The notes beneath the pieces are model-generated. The model had not been told where the DNA came from. It ran no database searches and was given only the letters and a program-made list of their open reading frames with translations. The position numbers were made by a program, and so were the translations under genes. A stretch of 64,000 bases of DNA from NCBI GenBank assembly GCA_951406725.2, contig OX597820.1, positions 111,476,001 through 111,540,000 on the forward strand, written 5' to 3'. The stretch's first letter is position 1. Each line of letters begins with the position of its first letter. The DNA is from Octopus vulgaris. Lineage: Eukaryota. Shown piece by piece: positions 39,001 to 52,119 of the stretch.

Positions 39001-42000
39001 ATGGCTGTGTGAAAGAATGTAACAAACACATTTAATAAAAGGGCTCTAACCACATTGGAGTATTGAAATAGATTTTTAAACCTCAAAGAGCTAAAGCAGA
39101 AATAGAAAATGTATTGGATAACAGTAAAAATAAAGTCTCACTTTCTTTGTGATTAATAGCTTTTGGATTTTTTTTTCTATGATGGTGAGCTCATACGGCT
39201 TACTTTTGTCATTGTGCCCATTTTCTTTTCGCGTTTGATAGATTAACATTAATACAGATGCTTATGTCTGCTATTAACAATTTAGCTGTTAACATAAGAA
39301 CATGTTAGAGCAGTGGATTGGCAGACAAAATTGCTTTTGGTATTGTGACTGAAGCTAACTTTGACTTACATCTTCTGAGTTTGATAAACTGACAGTTAAT
39401 TAAAACTGGCTTACATAATCATAGAAATCAATATAAGGATATATTAACAGGTGACTGATATGTAAAATACATTGTTCAGTGAAAGCCTTTTACTGTATGT
39501 TCAAAACTTTCTAGTTTTGCTTTTACTTTGAACCATCTGTAGTCTACAGTCTAGTACCAGTAATATACTGCACATTAGTTGCTGATAGCTGTGAATACTG
39601 AAATGATTTCTGTATTCATGTAAATACAAACTTCCCAGATTTTAAAAACTTAAATTAAGCTTATGCATTATACATGAAAAAAGTTATCTATTTCCCCATT
39701 ATTCTCTATGGGAGTGGCAATATTTAGATTGGTGATAGCTGATGTGCAATAGAGTTTAAATTATGTATAGTAATGTTCCATTTTCTATGATAGCATCATC
39801 AATTAATGCATGCCTTCCAAACTAGCTTGGGTTGAACAGTTTTCAACAGGATCCAATGAGCCAGGAGATTGTGTCAAGCTGTCTGCTTTGACACAATTTC
39901 TACAGCTGGATGCCCTTCTTAATGTCATCCATCTTAACAGTGTGTATTGGATACTACATAAAGTGCTGATAGCTTAAGCTAGATGGAATTTGTGGGAGAG
40001 GGAGACTCAGGAAGATGTGGGACAAAGTAATAAAAACTGACCTCAGGAGATGACAAAGGACCAAGGTGATTGGCAAGTTACTGTGCTCTAGAAAACTCAG
40101 CAAAAAATGAAGTCCTAAAAGCATATGTCTATGCCTTTGCATCCAATCTGTCCCTCTCAAGCCATCCCTACAACTTTTCTTCCTAATACTCATATCCCGC
40201 CATCACTCTTCTAACCACAGCACTATTTGCTCAGCTGCTGTAATTATGGGAGCAGAACTCTCTCATTTGTACTTACTACTAGTTATCTTTCTCCATGGAA
40301 AAGGCTTCCCTTGTCAGTCAGCCCTCATTGTTAGACTCTCCCCTTACCACTTTATTTTCCTTTGACAAACCCTGAACACTTTCATATCTGCCTTAGATGT
40401 ATTTCCCCACCTCCTTTCTCATTATATTCACTACTATGTACTTTTGACCTCTGTCACTGTACATCCCCTCCTCTCTCCTCATTCACTTCACATCTCACCC
40501 CACTTATGTTCTGCCACCTCTGCTCCTCTCCACCCTTTATGCATTCATCCCTATCCCTCATCTCTAACCATCTGTCAGTCTCCTTTCACACTGTTGCAAA
40601 CTTGCCTGCTCACTCTTCCTGATCTCACCCTATACTTTTATATATGCTTTCTTGTGCCTGACACTCCATCACTGCTGGCTGTTTCTCTGTTTCAAACTGC
40701 AGTAGCCTTGTATCTTTTTAACACCAAGAGACCTTGTCCCTCTATCATACTTTAGTCCCTCAACACCTGACATAAAGCTACTTTGCAATATTACATCCAC
40801 ACTCAGTTGAGTTATTGGGTAAGCTCACTTGTGCTGGTGCTACAAAAATAAAAAAAAGCACTCAGTACTGTAAAGTGATTGGCATTAGGAAGGGTATCTA
40901 GCTGTAGTAACCATGCTAAAATAGGCATTGGAACTCAATGTAGTTCTCTGGCTCATTGGATCTTGTCAAACTGTCCAATCCATGCCAGCATGGAGAAAGG
41001 ACATTAAATGTTGATGATGATCATGTCAAGTGATAAATACTTTGGTCCTTGGTGACAACATGACCACCTGTGCTTCCTTGTGCAAACAATAGCAAAATTT
41101 TGTCGTGATCAAAATCAAATTGATTTCCAGTGTTCAATTTATAGCTTGTGTACTTTTATGACCTATGCCAGTGAAGTTTGAAGGTCACTTTCGTAATTGA
41201 ATTGTATTTCGTTTAGGATTTGTGTACTTCTGTGTTTTATATAGCAATTACACTAAATCTGACTAGACTTCTTTTTCTATATATCATAATAAAGAAACAT
41301 CAGTGTATATCCTACATGAGATTTTTTCTGAGATTTTAATACCCTTTTAGTGAACAGAAAAAAATTTTATGATTACTTGTAATTTATCAAATAATATGAA
41401 ATTACTGTAGGAAGTTCTTTATGGCTATAGTGATGTTGGTAGGAATAAGGTTATGTTTGATGAAACTGTTACAGTCATCCATTAGCTGCTATGTTCTGAA
41501 ATTCATGAAGTGTTTGTTCCTCTTGACATTTGAAGTGAATGCCTTGCTACCTTATATAATGATAAACTAACATCAATTTTCAGGCTTTGGTGGAAAAAGA
41601 GCACAAACTTCATGGTAGAAACATTGATCCCAAGCGAGCAAATCCACGAGAACCGATTAGGAAAGTCTTCGTTAGAAACCTCGACCAGAACTTGACAGAA
41701 AATGAAATTCGTGAATATTTTGGTAAATTTGGAAAGGTTTGTTTGTCAGTTTCACTTGATTAATTTATTATTTTGAAAATGGTTTGTACTGTAAGATTTG
41801 AAGTAAAGAGTATTTGCATAAGTGTCTTGTAAGAGCAGTAACTTGTATTTTAGATATAAATAGGAAAAAATAAAACTATAGATTAAATTTATATTTCTGT
41901 TAAGCTACATTGTCTGCTTCAGTTAATTTTGAAAATAATAAAAGATTTAAATTAATTTTAATTTTTTATTAGCTGGTCAATCTAGGTCTACAGTAGAAAG

Positions 42001-43819
42001 TGCTAGCAAAATGAAATTAACAATAGATTTTCTTGGTAGGTTTTAAGTAACCGTAAAACAGGAAGTTTGTATCATAGAATTTGGGGTGGTCTCAGGTAGG
42101 TTGGTATCAAATATATGGAATCTTGCCTAGTTCCTTTCAACAATTGTTAGACTGAGCTATATTGAAATGGTAGTAGATTTTAGTTTGTGTTTTTAACTGT
42201 GAGCTTCAAAACAGGTTTACAGCATTAATATATGTTTGGTGTTGATGGATTGATATACTTAAAATATTGAGAAAAATTAACTGAAGAATTATTGATCTTG
42301 CAATTTTTTGAAATATTTATGGAGGAAGGTTTTTTTGTTTTATGATATGCAGTATTTTCAAAGATAGCTTTCATTTGTATCTTCTTCATATATAATTACT
42401 TCATTGCTTGACAAATTAGAAAATTTAATAGAATTGTTAGTGATTTGCTCTTCAACCATTACAATTCAACTATGGTTGTAATACTCTCTACAATCTCAGC
42501 ATAAATATTCATTGAGCTTCATTTAGATCCTTCTCCTTTCTAGGTCAGGCAGATCATGTAGCTACCTTCTCAGATTAATACACATTAGTTAGATTTTGAT
42601 TTAACAGAATTGAATAGGGTGTGTGTAGATTAGAGCTAACATAGATTTCATATCACTTAATTTTTAGAATCTTTGTTTTTTCTTTCCAACAACTAAGACA
42701 GTTGAAGAAATTTTAGATTATTTTTTTCTATTTTCAGATAGTCAAACTGGAATTACCATATGATAAAATGAGAAATCAGCGACGTAATTATTGTTTCATA
42801 GAATTTGAATCTGAGGATGCAGTTGATAAAATCTGTGAAAATGCAGGTCATCAGATCGGTTCCAGAGAGGTAAGGACTCTAAATGTTCTGCTACTTTAAA
42901 ACCCTTTTTTTAATTACTTTAACTTAAGCTCTAAAAAGTACTTTTATCCATTAATTAAACTTTATTTTATTCTAAAATAAAGTCTAGTTATTGTAATAAG
43001 TTGGGTACTTTCCAATTTTTCTTATTCCAGGTAATGCTGTAAACTCATCATTTTAACTTGTTAATCGTTGCATCCTAATTAATGGAACATTTAAGTGGTA
43101 ACAGCAGAGTTCCATATACTACCAACTTTATTTGCATCCATCCTCTAGGAATGATTGAGGCTTACTTCTACTTCCCTGACTAGAAGATAGATTTTCTTAA
43201 AATCCATTATATCTAAACAGTAAAGGGCTTCAAGGTTAATACTACGTAAGTTATCCCTAGCTGGTATAAGTGCCATATTGATGTCTACTACGAAGGTTAT
43301 AGCTGGTTTGTGCTGATTGCATTACCAATGATTACTCCTTTTGTTCCACTTCCAGCTGCGGGGGCGCTAGTTCATGTGAATATACTGGACAAAGGAGACC
43401 CTGAATACTACTCTCGAGTTGTGGTGGTGGTCAGTACTTCGAGATACCGCAGCCACATGTGACTACACCTACTACTAGGCCTATGCAATGGTTAGAAGTT
43501 GTTAAACCAAATAATATTCTGCACTAACTGTTAATTGCCTTCTTATAGGTGACATTGTTTAAAAAATCTATCTTAGTAAAGTCTTAGTTAATGCTATAAT
43601 AAATTTATTTACAGTTTCATTTAGAAATCGTAACGACAATCAAGCTTGTCAGTAAGAGGATATCAACTGTTAAATTGTAAGTCTCGCTGTAGTAAGTCTA
43701 CTGACACAAGTTGGTAGTTTTGTTTTGACTTTTTTTTTTCTAAAGATGCTTTCCTCTTCCATTTCTCATTATTTTCATTAAAGTAGTTTCTCCCATCCCA
43801 CATTTTATATATATATATA

Positions 43820-43864
<45 letters not shown>

Positions 43865-46800
43865 ATATATATTTATATTCTCTTACTGCATTTTTCCCAT
43901 TTCTACTCTAGTGAATAATAACATTATGGGTAAAGTACTAAGTCTTTGGGGCCCTACAAGCTGGCAGATGGTAGTCTGTGGCAGTCATTTTCATTGGTTT
44001 AATTCTTTTTCATTAAGCTATTTAAGGTTAAAGATCAATTTAAAAAAAGAAATGTCAATGACTGCCATTAGATTAAAATTCAATCACTTATTGATGATTT
44101 TGATTTGAACTGATGGTGGCATATTATCAATTTTGTAGGCCCAGGTGAAGAAAGCAACTCCAGTTGCAAACCAGAGAGGAAGAGGCCGAGGAGGTATGAA
44201 CTATGGCTTTGGTGATCTAACAGAAGGCATGTGCTTTGGAGATGTTTTAATACTATTGTTAAATGAAAACTGCAAAAAGCAGCAGCTGTTGCAGTTGATT
44301 TGAAAAATGTTTTAGTATGGTGTTAGAACAATGTTTATTAATTAAGGTCAAATTGACTTGTTGAAAATGTAGTTTTAGTTTTAATGATAACAATAAATTT
44401 GGCTTTGCCATCATGTATATTCTTTATAACAAATAGTATGTATATTGACTGGTTCTTAATATTTTTTTCTGACGTGTCATGTAATTGCAAAAATGTGTTG
44501 ATTATAGGTTTCCAGTGGACCAACATTCAGTGTTTAACTCATCAAATGACTTTTTTTTTGTGCTAAAAGCATTTGCTATAGGTTGTATATCATGTCTGTC
44601 TTAACGTCATTAGGTTAGTAACATAAAACCTATTGATGATGTTTATAATGTATATGTACATTGTTTCATCATAGCACTACCAAACTCTCTGGTTGTAAAA
44701 TGCTCTTGTGCCTCGTGTCATACTTTCATCTGTGATATCTATTATTGACTTGTTCGTAGACCTAGCACTAATGACACACAAAGTGGAAATCCCATTGATT
44801 CTTCATCTCGTTTCCCACAACACAGTGTCTAATATATTGCCATACTTTGTGGGCAATTTGTTCTTTACTGTTAGATTTACAGGTGGCTATACAAAATCTG
44901 AAGAGTAATTGGGGACCAGTGGTTATTAAATTTTTCCTGACAGATGTAAATAATTGTATATGGCCAAATCTGATATATTTAACTATGGATAATGATTTCC
45001 TATGCTGACAACCAAAAAACTAACCAACTGAACATCTATTTCATTAAAAATGGAATAACCAACCTATATCTGCATTGTTTGTTGCCTGTGATTTAAAAAT
45101 TACAACTGTGATGTTCCTCTTGTAGCTTAAGATTTGATAAATATTTATTCAGACTCTCCTATTGCATCCCTGTGAATAGAACATCGATGCTTTTATAGAA
45201 ATATAATAATATATTGTCATTTTGATTATTTCTTTTCAATTGTAATGGCCTGGCTCTGCTGTTTACAAATGTTGCAGCTGATTCGATCAACTGAACAGTT
45301 TGCTCATGAAATTAACGTGCAAGTAGTGGAGCACGCCACAGATGTTTACTCTTAATGTTGTTACTGGGAGATTCAGCGCGTCACAGTGTGTGATAAGGCT
45401 AGCCCATTGAATTACATGTACATCTCATTTTTGCCAGCTGAATGAATTGGCACAACGTGTCTTGTTCAAGGACTCAATGCACCTCTTGGAATCAAACTTA
45501 GGACCATACGATTGTGAGCCAAACACCCTATATAAGTATTAGAATAGTGTTCCTTGTAAACCTACAAAGTCATTTGTAATTTCATTATCTCATTGTTATC
45601 TCACTTGAATGTTAACTTGTACCAGTTTCACTTTAATAATCCATTAGACTACCTGCTTTCTGTTTACTTTGTTGATGAATGATCTACAAAGTGTGACTTA
45701 AGGTACCTTTTCAAGTTAAATACTAAGCCTAGCTATATTCTCAATATCTGGTATCTTTATTTTCACAATTAGGTGGGCTCTGAGTTGACTGTCCAGTTCA
45801 GAAACAAAATGAAATATTTGTAGCAGAGTAGTTGAACTGATACAATAGCTAACTCCTTATGAAACTGACATAAGTACACACACACACACACACACGACTG
45901 AATTCTGCAGTTTCCATCTACTAGATTCTAATTCAAGATATTTGGTCAATCCAGGTCTACAGTAGAAAGTGCTAGCAAGATGAAATTAATTGCAGGCTGG
46001 TGTTACAATGTCTGGCTGTTTTGTTTAGCAATTACCTAAAGTTAAGTTGACATTAAAGTAACAGTTCAATTTAAAATCCACTACAACAGTGATGTTAACG
46101 TAGCAGTTTGACTTTAGTCACCTTATTCTGTACTTCATATATGATTGGTGTTGTTAGTCAATGTTATGGTTTAATGTCTGTTTCGTAGGTGGCTGGAACC
46201 AAGGTGGTTGGAACCAGGGCTACAATCAGGGCTACAACAACTATTACAACCAAGGCTACTGTGGTTATGGTGGTTATGGCGGCTATGGTGGTTATGACTA
46301 CAGTTACAATTATAACCAGGGTGCTTATGGTGGATGGGGAGACTATGGGCAAAACTATGGATATGGATATGGTAAGTAAACATTTATTATTTCATAAAGT
46401 TGTACTGGATTTGTAGTTAGAAGTATATATGATAAAATTTTGAATTGGAGAAAAAACCTACGGAAATTGACTTGTAACTGAAAAATGACATTAACTAGCA
46501 GTTGCATTGCTCTCTGGGTGATTTTCTGCTACTTTGTTTCAGGATTGTTTGTACAAAACTTTGATGTGCATATCTGCCACTACACACACACACGTTTTAT
46601 TTTTGCATATATCAGACATTAATGATCAAAGTAGTTCTGAGATTTGAGTAAAAGATGGAAATTTATATAATAATTGATTCCATTGGAACATTGTATGTTC
46701 AACAATGTGAATTAGAGGGTTTGTCAATTTTGTTAGTATGCAGATCAATATCGAAATCTTATAGAGCTTCTATTTCAATAGCTGCTCTGAAACTATATAT

Positions 46801-49800
46801 ATTATGTATTGTATTGGTGCAAGTCATCTTTTATGGCTTTCAAAATCTCACCACTTAAATTTGTATAACACAGACAGTTCTGAAGTTCATTGAACAAATT
46901 TTGGATGGGTGTTGTCATATGACAAACTTTTCACTGCTGCTTAACTCTAGGGCTTTCCTGAGGTCTGATTTCTCTGCAACACAGAGAAACCAATGTGAGC
47001 ACATTGGTATATGAACATATCAAAGAATACTTGGTTAAGGAGAATGCAGTTTGTCCAGTTTTGCTTTCTCTTCAAAGCAACATTGATTTCAAATCCGCCA
47101 TTTGTAAGCTTTGTAATGTTAGCAAACATTGTCTAAGAAATACCCTGTATTACATTGGTGCTTAACAGATAGGACAGTCTGTTCTTGAAAGTCATTGAAA
47201 TTGGTTCCTAGTTTAAAAGTTTTCTGATTGTTTAGTCCCCTGGCATCCTGTTTATTTGAACTGCTGTTACTGTTTATATCTCACATCCATTTGTCTTCTT
47301 ATCCTGTCAGTTTGATAAAGATTATCAACTGGTATCAGAATATTTGCTGCCTGTGAAAGCTGGCTCAGTGTATTGTTGTGAAGTAGCTTATTCTCTTCAT
47401 GAAATACCCTAGCCAGTCTGCTTTCTTTTAGTAAAAGTTACACACTCATTACTGATTAATAATCAGCTTTTTTTTTTTTATAGTATAGATGACAAGAAAA
47501 AAAATTAACCAAATTGTAAGAAAACTAGAAATGTGTTTGGTGTTAAATGAACAAACTTATTTATATCAAACTAATTTGTTTATGTAATTAACCTTAGTTC
47601 ATTGTCCCATTTTCAATCACTCATTTGGAAGTTTACTTGTAGGCGCATTAGTTTACAAATGTGAGGATGTCAAGTATATGACCATTGTATTTGGGTGAGT
47701 GCTATAGTAAAGTGGGTCAAGTGAATCTGAGATGCCAGTTGTATTTAAGCTGTGTACTGTTGCCTTTAAGATATTACATCACCAATATTTGCCTCACTTT
47801 CTGAAATCATTAGGACCCTCTATTGATGGGTTTTGGTGTTGAAAGATTTAGTACTCAGTTTCATTGCTTTTGCTGTTTTAATGTAATGAAGATTTTTTTT
47901 CAGCTACATCATTGTAGTGTATCCTTATATGAAGATTAGTCAGAGAGAGAAAGTACCTAGACCATGTAACAAATAACTTGTGTTGAGAAATATATTTAGA
48001 ATGTCATCATGTTGGTTCTAATATTACTGGTGTTTAATTTAAGATGGTGGATTTAGATTTAACCTTTAAATCAAGACAGGAGATCGATATTGATAGTGTT
48101 CAAATATATTATAAACTTACTATTTTAAATCATCTACATTGTTAGGATCTGATAATTGTTTAGTTTAATCCTTTAGATACTAACCCACCTGATACTGTCT
48201 CTTGTTCTATAATACAAATTTCCTATTTGATTTAAATTAAACCTGCCATCAAAATGCCGTGTTGGTTTATTTTCCAAATACCAGCTTTATTAATGACAAG
48301 GTTATTTTAATAACTTCATTTCATTCAAAGTTTATTGAAACAAAGGCTGTAAATTTTAATCAAAATGTGGAAACAAAAGGTTAAGTGTTCTGTTCTCTGT
48401 TAGTTTCACTGTATTTTGACAATAGTTAGTGAAAACAAGACTTTTTTAGATGTAAATATAAAAACTGTTTACTCATAATAGTTTTGTAATGTATTCTCAC
48501 TGCTGTATAGAGTTGTGCCTGTGTCTTGGCATCATATGATTGTTGTAAATGACATCACCATCATACAATTGCTGTTTGTTTCTAGTCTTCTGTGAAAAAC
48601 CTGTTTGGCTGTTGGGCAATATAACCTCGCTTGGACAGGTGAGGTTTGGTAACAAGGACATCTCACTATCTCACTATAGCATTTGTCAGAATTTGTCTCA
48701 AAAATTCTGTCTGTTGCATGCAAGCATGGGAAGTGGACATTAATGGTATAATATTTTGGGCAGTTAACCTTTTGTTACCATATTTCTGTTGGAATGCTTC
48801 GCCTTTGTTTCAGTTATTTTTGAAAATAAAGAATCTAGTAAAATAACTTAGTCATTATTAAACTGGTGTTTGGAACTTAAATTGAATTTAGATGGAGGGT
48901 TTTAATTTAGATCACTTTTAAAATGTAATGTGTATCATAGAAATGGGCTGTTCTATGTGGATTGATGTCAAAAAGGTTACTACAAGCTTTATCATGTTAC
49001 AACATCTTTTAACTTCAACTCCCAGATGTGTTTTGGCTATTCGACATCCTTCTGCTCTATTGTGGTTGTAGATTTCCCACATACCTCTCTGTTGTTAATC
49101 TTAATTTCTACATATACATTACATGATCTTTCAATAATTCCAGGATATGATTATGGTAGTTGGAGTGGCTATGGACAAGATCAGGGTAAGTAATGTGACA
49201 TTTTTTCCTTTTTAAATTATTTCCTTTATTTAATTTTTTTTCTCTTATATTTGAAACTTAAAACGTCCTTCTGCATGCTAACGTTTAATGAAATGGTGAG
49301 CATTTGCACCAATCTTTCCCTCAGCATAATGTGATCTAGAAGATTTCTGTAACCCAAGCTTTATTTATTTTCTGAAACTGACTGGCTTTTTTAACATTTA
49401 AAAAATTTTTATTTTTTTCTTTTCCTTTTTAAATTATCACTTCTTCAGCTTGAATACTAATGTTGCTGCATGTCTCTTTACTAGGGAACTTCCTAGCTGG
49501 CTGCTTTTCATACAGCCTAGTTGGGTTAGGGTGGGGATGATTTAAAAGGAAGTTTCACTTTTAACCAACCTAAGAAACTAGTGATTAGATAATTTTATTT
49601 TGAGAAGTATAAATTTTTCTCTTTTGTTAAAGCAGTTAATTCAATGAAATACGACATTTTTTTAAAAATCTTTAAATATTTAAGTTGTAGATATTTCTAA
49701 AATGTTTTCTTCAAAAATATATTCTAGATATATGGCACATGCTTTCCATCTAGTTTTCCTTTTTGTAGATGTAGAGGCTTGGAACTATCCCTTTATTATT

Positions 49801-51431: not shown

Positions 51432-52119
<688 letters not shown>

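Follow-up and report, generated by a model that had tools for sequence, protein, structure and literature searches.

The host gene and its RRM2 intron

The stretch of DNA analysed here (the window, 64,000 nucleotides of the Octopus vulgaris forward strand) carries a two-RRM gene with a glycine/tyrosine tail, for which nine coding exons were mapped from 28247 to about 50568. The initial annotation had taken the host to be an hnRNP gene, and this is borne out by the RRM_1 profile and by the names of the Octopus homologues: the gene is hnRNP D-like/AB (HNRNPABD). Its coding exon 5 aligns to positions 25-64 of the 70 in the Pfam RRM_1 profile and is 100% identical to Octopus proteins P0001 and P0002, for which the names given are hnRNP D-like-A or HNRNPABD. 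The intron that follows (42870-44138, 1269 nucleotides) interrupts RRM2 ahead of its last strand, and the extent of the profile match in exon 5 agrees with the annotated placement of this intron just before the end of RRM2. The two flanking exons are as follows.

42738..42869, + strand: coding exon 5, most of RRM2, with the normal donor GAG|GTAAGG (Pfam, protein identity, RNA joint)
44139..44226, + strand: coding exon 6, the last RRM2 strand and the RGG start; its acceptor is common to both isoforms described below

Exon 6 has two donors of its own, 33 nt apart (44193|44194 and 44226|44227), one a GT and one a non-standard GC; contigs of two RNA runs (X6 and X20) join the GC donor to the exon that follows, and the named isoforms of the gene vary by the 11 residues between the two sites. 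A 1706-nt contig of X20, with a depth of 98.5, extends from exon 6 into the following intron (44227-44400 and beyond), possibly representing a second retained-intron isoform.

A second donor and the conservation of the kept stretch

The stretch is present in 20 of 24 listed RNA runs from 9 studies, and splice joints were read from the contigs of four of these runs (from four studies) placed on 42600-44400, bearing in mind that contigs drop rare forms. The normal joint, 42869 to 44139, is carried by three of the four, and those runs therefore contain spliced RNA. One of them, X20, derives from organism E and also includes a 679-nt contig (contig 12) that covers 42841-43489 unbroken and then joins 44138, with GT..AG ends; shifting the cut by +1 places the joint at a donor, ATG|GTTAGA at 43490|43491, spliced to the exon 6 acceptor. 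This alternative joint is seen in a single contig, in one of the three runs with spliced contigs, and is known from organism E alone, a related species distinct from the organisms that match the window in sequence. The extended contig has a depth of 130.6 and the normal joint one of 4318, a ratio of roughly 3%, contig depth being a poor measure of abundance. Unspliced intron contigs extending past 43490 are found in X14 and X6; both runs have contig cover in the RRM2 intron and none at the ends of neighbouring introns, the missing cover not being taken as evidence. The features that define the extended isoform are these.

42870..43490, + strand: 621 nt of intron sequence retained by the alternative isoform (X20 contig)
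42897..42899, + strand: first in-frame stop of the extended isoform, TAA, 591 nt ahead of the new junction
43483..43501, + strand: alternative donor ATG|GTTAGA (43490|43491), also the 3' arm of a predicted helix (joint seen in X20; helix predicted)

With 591 nt between them, the stop lies more than 50-55 nt upstream of the next junction. The donor itself is weak by prediction, with a U1 pairing energy of -4.1 kcal/mol compared with -10.1 kcal/mol for the normal donor, and stronger-looking GT sites within the kept stretch (43031, 43246 and 43430) are not the donor used.

Judged by aligned bases, the kept stretch is highly conserved. Only 2 of its 621 bases differ in organism E (42931 and 43108), whereas the opening 173 bases of the next intron have 9 differences (Fisher p 3e-5, or 0.002 counting just the 6 differences listed by place); those 173 bases are a short neutral control, and the spliced-out half of the RRM2 intron is uncovered in organism E. 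Organisms B and D have no listed substitutions and are hence uninformative in this respect. There is also a deeper comparison, with P0007, a 112-residue read-through protein that continues from the exon into the RRM2 intron. The exon part of P0007 is of squid- or cuttlefish-type sequence, being identical to cuttlefish P0004 at 44 of 44 residues and to the window at 41 of 44. Its intron part matches the translated window at 43009-43053 in 13 of 15 residues, with a score of 65 where the best unrelated window among 3360 scores 48; this is a match between 15-residue translations rather than of DNA, and it stops short of the G+C-richer island discussed below. By eye, the last residues of P0007 resemble 43054-43078 after a frame shift. 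The octopod and decapodiform lineages split about 270 million years ago. A homologue search with the P0007 tail returned P0007 alone, and pattern scans for the conserved block gave four metagenome matches, none with an hnRNP gene, and none in prokaryote genomes or viral contigs.

An alternative explanation is that the junction reflects splicing noise at a cryptic donor, in a sequence whose conservation has another cause, such as enhancer activity of the DNA or an intronic element that assists splicing of the normal exons. Its rarity (one contig, one run) and the weak U1 pairing speak for such noise, but the words enriched in the stretch are strand-specific, the deep match covers a splice-site-like motif, and the stronger-looking GT sites nearby go unused, and we regard this explanation as improbable.

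Internal motifs, repeated words and predicted structure

Several segments of the intron, most of them within the kept stretch, are distinguished by their sequence or predicted pairing.

43009..43053, + strand: deeply conserved block, pyrimidine tract and AG|GT site (P0007 match)
43054..43073, + strand: 5' arm of a 19-pair helix expected to form with the region of the used donor (prediction only)
43117..43475, + strand: TACT-rich stretch with five TACTAC words, at 43117, 43240, 43286, 43406 and 43470 (shuffle test)
43311..43475, + strand: island of higher G+C, in which the AG at 43355 resembles an acceptor and the GT at 43430 a donor (motifs; neither seen in use)
43558..43718, + strand: downstream arms of three nested predicted helices, 43558-43574, 43677-43685 and 43708-43718 (prediction only)

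The sequence TTCCAG|GTAATG at 43030|43031 looks like both an acceptor, with 14 pyrimidines in its 17-base tract, and a donor, with a predicted U1 pairing of -8.1 kcal/mol, and it conforms to the recursive-splicing exon motif of a pyrimidine tract and AG with a donor immediately after. No joint at 43030|43031 occurs among the contigs of the four runs, which drop rare forms. Acceptor-like sites with at least 13 of 17 pyrimidines number three in the 621 nt (43030, 43148 and 43355), with about 0.9 expected from the rate in the host gene (25 of 524 YAG sites, about 1.5 per kb).

These motifs raise the question as to whether the element is a cluster of poison or decoy cassettes, in which an exon would run from an internal acceptor to 43490 (460 nt from 43031, or 135 nt from 43356) and the 621-nt form would be an intermediate or a detained species; the AG|GT site at 43030 could then act as a recursive splice site. 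The three acceptor-like sites are in keeping with this, as are the start of the deep match at the 43030 tract, the early stop that each such cassette contains and the intron-spanning contigs of X14 and X6. The decoy exons of SF3B1 intron 4 are similar in lying in a conserved intron of more than 1 kb that has several internal acceptor- and donor-like sites and intron-containing RNA, and decoy junctions there are rare or undetected without a block of NMD, as described in the available portion of PMC6097662. However, three acceptors against about 0.9 is no clear excess, and the octopus runs differ from the SF3B1 case in that no joint into any internal acceptor is seen in the four of them, the X20 contig being unbroken over all three sites (it is continuous over 43031, 43149, 43356 and 43430). 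The same holds for the likeness to recursive-splicing exons, as the accessible text of PMC6224609 presents them: the AG|GT site after a pyrimidine tract is shared, but the octopus intron is short and no intermediate junction is seen. We consider a cassette cluster unlikely, if by no means negligible.

The initial annotation had centred on the island at 43311-43475, as a GC-rich, structure-caged poison exon with an acceptor at 43355, a donor at 43429|43430 and three complementary pairings acting as a conformational switch. The letters are as it described them: the pyrimidine tract at 43335-43348, the AG ending at 43355 and all three complementary pairs are present, and the in-frame TAG at 43368-43370 does lie 59 nt before the donor GTG|GTCAGT, which exceeds 50-55 nt. 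The qualities attributed to them hold in part. The island has 48% G+C, but 3.6% of the 165-mers in the window reach that value; and the acceptor tract has 15 pyrimidines in 17, but similar AGs make up the 25 of 524 YAG sites in the gene counted above. The segment is conserved, as had been anticipated, with none of the 165 island bases different in organism E (Fisher p 0.004 when set beside the 9 differences in 173 bases of the next intron, or 0.03 with the 6 placed differences).

The RNA departs from the proposal. Neither predicted junction (42869 to 43356, or 43429 to 44139) is seen in any of the four runs, although contigs drop rare forms and a low level is possible; splicing is seen from 43490|43491 in place of 43429, and the first stop of the isoform seen is the TAA at 42897-42899 in place of the TAG at 43368. 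What survives of the expected truncation before the end of RRM2 is that an unproductive isoform containing the island does exist, but with another donor and another stop. The proposed switch fares no better: the fold of the island has a z of +0.83 (154 of 200 shuffles are equally stable), its best sliding-window fold has a z of -1.33, and with flanks the z is +1.15. Perfect helices of at least 7 pairs number two, a count reached by 31 of 300 shuffles, and the best 14x14 duplex is reached by 8 of 60. The sole measure of five to rise above chance is the count of G-U-tolerant helices of at least 7 pairs, 17 compared with 8.5 expected and reached by 1 of 300 shuffles. When 43010-43520 is folded at 10-37 C, the probabilities of the marker pairs are 0.09-0.15 for the tract helix, 0.51-0.65 for the acceptor helix and 0.03-0.06 for the donor helix. 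As a switch, the three helices are mostly at chance level.

In favour of a 74-nt cassette (43356-43429) controlled by three local helices are its splice signals, its stop 59 nt before the donor, the invariance of the island in organism E, an acceptor helix with a pair probability of 0.5-0.8 and the G-U-tolerant helices; against it stand both missing joints, a different donor in use, a fold no more stable than shuffles and the low probability of the named donor helix. As first proposed it is barely credible, and the island is instead the 3' quarter of a larger, 621-base element, the constraint reaching about 300 nt upstream of it. A coding role for a 70-codon open frame at 43250-43459 was considered and set aside: it has no homologue, and its two matches are summed weak repeats whose best single stretches score 5.9 and 8.4 bits.

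The island might also encode a box C/D or H/ACA small RNA, one that could influence in cis which donor is chosen, in the manner of SNORD86 within NOP56. The island has a C-like box at 43328 (one mismatch), a D box at 43401, an H-like box at 43405 and an ACA at 43465, and it lies between two competing donors as a structured segment, much as SNORD86 is placed in the available text of PMC7038934; the octopus sequence is unlike NOP56/SNORD86 in lacking snoRNA architecture. A C/D form would have no terminal stem (+2.4 kcal/mol), and in an H/ACA form 43411-43464 would fold as two small hairpins and not as one with a pocket. Moreover, no Rfam family matches the window at gathering scores, or the island even at an E of up to 10, and the constraint reaches well upstream of the island, making a small RNA very improbable. 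Two other RNA identities were rejected. A U2 pseudouridylation guide would have its U2-complementary words in pockets suitably spaced from an H or ACA box, and by eye they are not so placed; and for a telomerase RNA there is no CTAACCC, CCCTAA or TTAGGG in the intron and no relevant paper was found. ATGATT ... CCCTGA word pairs resembling C/D boxes occur at 43151-43179 and 43328-43404; the first spans only 29 nt with a 5-pair closing stem, like a kink-turn hairpin.

The five TACTAC words compare with 0.39 expected, and none of 1000 shuffles reaches five. The shorter word TACT occurs 12 times in 43031-43490 compared with 5.0 expected (reached by 1 of 1000 shuffles), and the spliced-out half of the RRM2 intron has no TACTAC and 4 TACT compared with 3.8 expected. 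Elsewhere in the window, the top-ranked TACTAC-enriched windows all fall on one opposite-strand stretch, by eye a three-letter repeat tract. The segments 43240-43265 and 43286-43308 look by eye like imperfect copies of one short sequence in tandem; both begin with TACTACG and end with TAGCTGGT, and this duplication (43240-43308) may account for two of the five words.

TACTAC is the exact complement of the U2 sequence GUAGUA. Pieces of a longer U2-complementary motif number 7 compared with 1.3 expected, five of them being the TACTAC words themselves, and just one copy, that at 43117, is spaced from an acceptor as a branch site would be. Efficient splicing requires a bulged nucleotide, according to the available part of PMC6049509. 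The UACUAC words might then be branch sites without a bulged A, catching the U2 snRNP without a branch nucleophile, and together with the AG|GT site and the crossing helices described below they would form an intronic spliceosome trap that stalls normal removal and shifts splicing to a masked donor. We see this as a long shot; if true, it would be a route of splicing regulation not met in the papers searched. No source for UACU binding by this protein family was found in the literature searched, and a full-text search for UACUAC gave nothing relevant among the matches listed.

Around the donor in use, a helix is predicted between 43054-43073 and 43483-43501, with 19 pairs (15 Watson-Crick and 4 G-U) and one bulge. 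Among 1000 shuffled targets 12 equal it, as do 59 of 969 GT sites by energy, 19 of 472 when G+C is matched and 7 of 969 by compact length, a measure picked after the helix had been seen and in which 2 of the 7 are the same helix. The duplex energies of the normal donor (-19.3) and the used donor (-18.7) are similar. The helix is lost when the pair span is limited to 200 nt or when the whole intron is folded with its flanks, and no temperature dependence of its core is predicted from 10 to 37 C. In the whole-intron fold three nested helices form in its place, pairing 43558-43574 with 43184-43200, 43677-43685 with 43157-43165 and 43708-43718 with 43118-43128. Perfect helices of at least 11 pairs number 3 compared with 0.22 expected, a value reached by 1 of 500 shuffles and also by 1 of 63 control windows; whole-region folds are not more stable than shuffles (z +0.86, +1.15 and -0.16). 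Because the donor helix and the nested helices cross, a structural switch between the two predicted sets is conceivable, but overall fold stability lends it no support. The kept stretch also contains a 21-pair A+T-rich hairpin (42949-42993, 86% complementary), the 5' arm of which can alternatively pair over 11 bases with 43076-43086.

Unproductive splicing and its likeness to known systems

Taken together, the locus is a conserved unproductive-splicing element, larger than and spliced differently from that first proposed. The explanation we favour, with a probability of roughly 0.6, is that abundant hnRNP D-like protein, bound to the UACU-rich stretch, raises the use of a second donor that is weak and perhaps masked, the resulting early-stop message being destroyed. 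Use of the donor at 43490|43491 would leave the conserved 621 intron bases in the message, placing a stop 591 bases before the next junction and making the message a likely target of nonsense-mediated decay, and this decay would probably constitute a feedback loop on the level of the hnRNP D-like protein itself. The second donor, with its poor U1 pairing, would normally be held in the 19-pair helix with 43054-43073, as weakly predicted by folding, and might be freed either by protein bound all along the stretch or by formation of the crossing helices to 43558-43718, likewise weakly predicted. Protein made from any message escaping decay would end after residue 207 with 9 new residues, and would lack both the final strand of RRM2 and the glycine/tyrosine tail. 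No paper on the octopus element was found, most subscription papers lying outside the search.

Drosophila squid is an invertebrate gene of the same hnRNP group as the octopus gene. Its isoform RD is NMD-sensitive and of low abundance, as reported in the available text of PMC2689934; the comparison made here covers the gene group and the NMD sensitivity. The human HNRNPD and HNRNPDL genes, which are auto- and cross-regulated, belong to the same protein family by homologue names and likewise have a non-coding element that is conserved and associated with an NMD-type isoform; in the portion of PMC5824352 that describes it, however, that element is a cassette exon in the 3' UTR, whereas the octopus element switches donors in an intron that lies between coding exons and within RRM2, and the two are different elements.

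In its workings the octopus element seems most like the unproductive splicing of Arabidopsis AtGRP7 and AtGRP8, by analogy with the available account in PMC2602770. There too the protein has an RRM and is glycine-rich, and a 5' splice site internal to the intron that interrupts the RRM keeps the conserved 5' half of that intron and brings in an early stop. The Arabidopsis genes are unrelated, though, and encode a single RRM; the part kept in the octopus differs from theirs in its 621-nt length, its UACUAC words and its several internal splice-site-like motifs; and NMD, binding and feedback, which we infer for the octopus, are demonstrated for AtGRP7/AtGRP8 (PMC2602770, as excerpted). Among SR genes, unproductive-splicing events arose independently and repeatedly, according to the part of PMC4379411 that treats them, and the octopus case fits the view that such feedback has been rebuilt again and again. 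As an example of conserved unproductive splicing in a gene for a cephalopod RNA-binding protein it is open to direct testing, and it differs from the vertebrate D/DL genes in both position and route. Its UACUAC cluster is a candidate recognition sequence for an invertebrate hnRNP that has been little studied or, alternatively, an unusual U2 decoy.

Repeats are present in other parts of the host gene. A 47-nt direct repeat, 96% identical, is found at 41974-42020 and 45943-45989 in two different introns, and a later intron contains a 102-nt inverted repeat (48286-48387 and 48761-48862, 74% complementary), which is a possible double-stranded RNA editing substrate. Directly downstream of the gene there is a TA run of about 670 nt, at 51437-52110.
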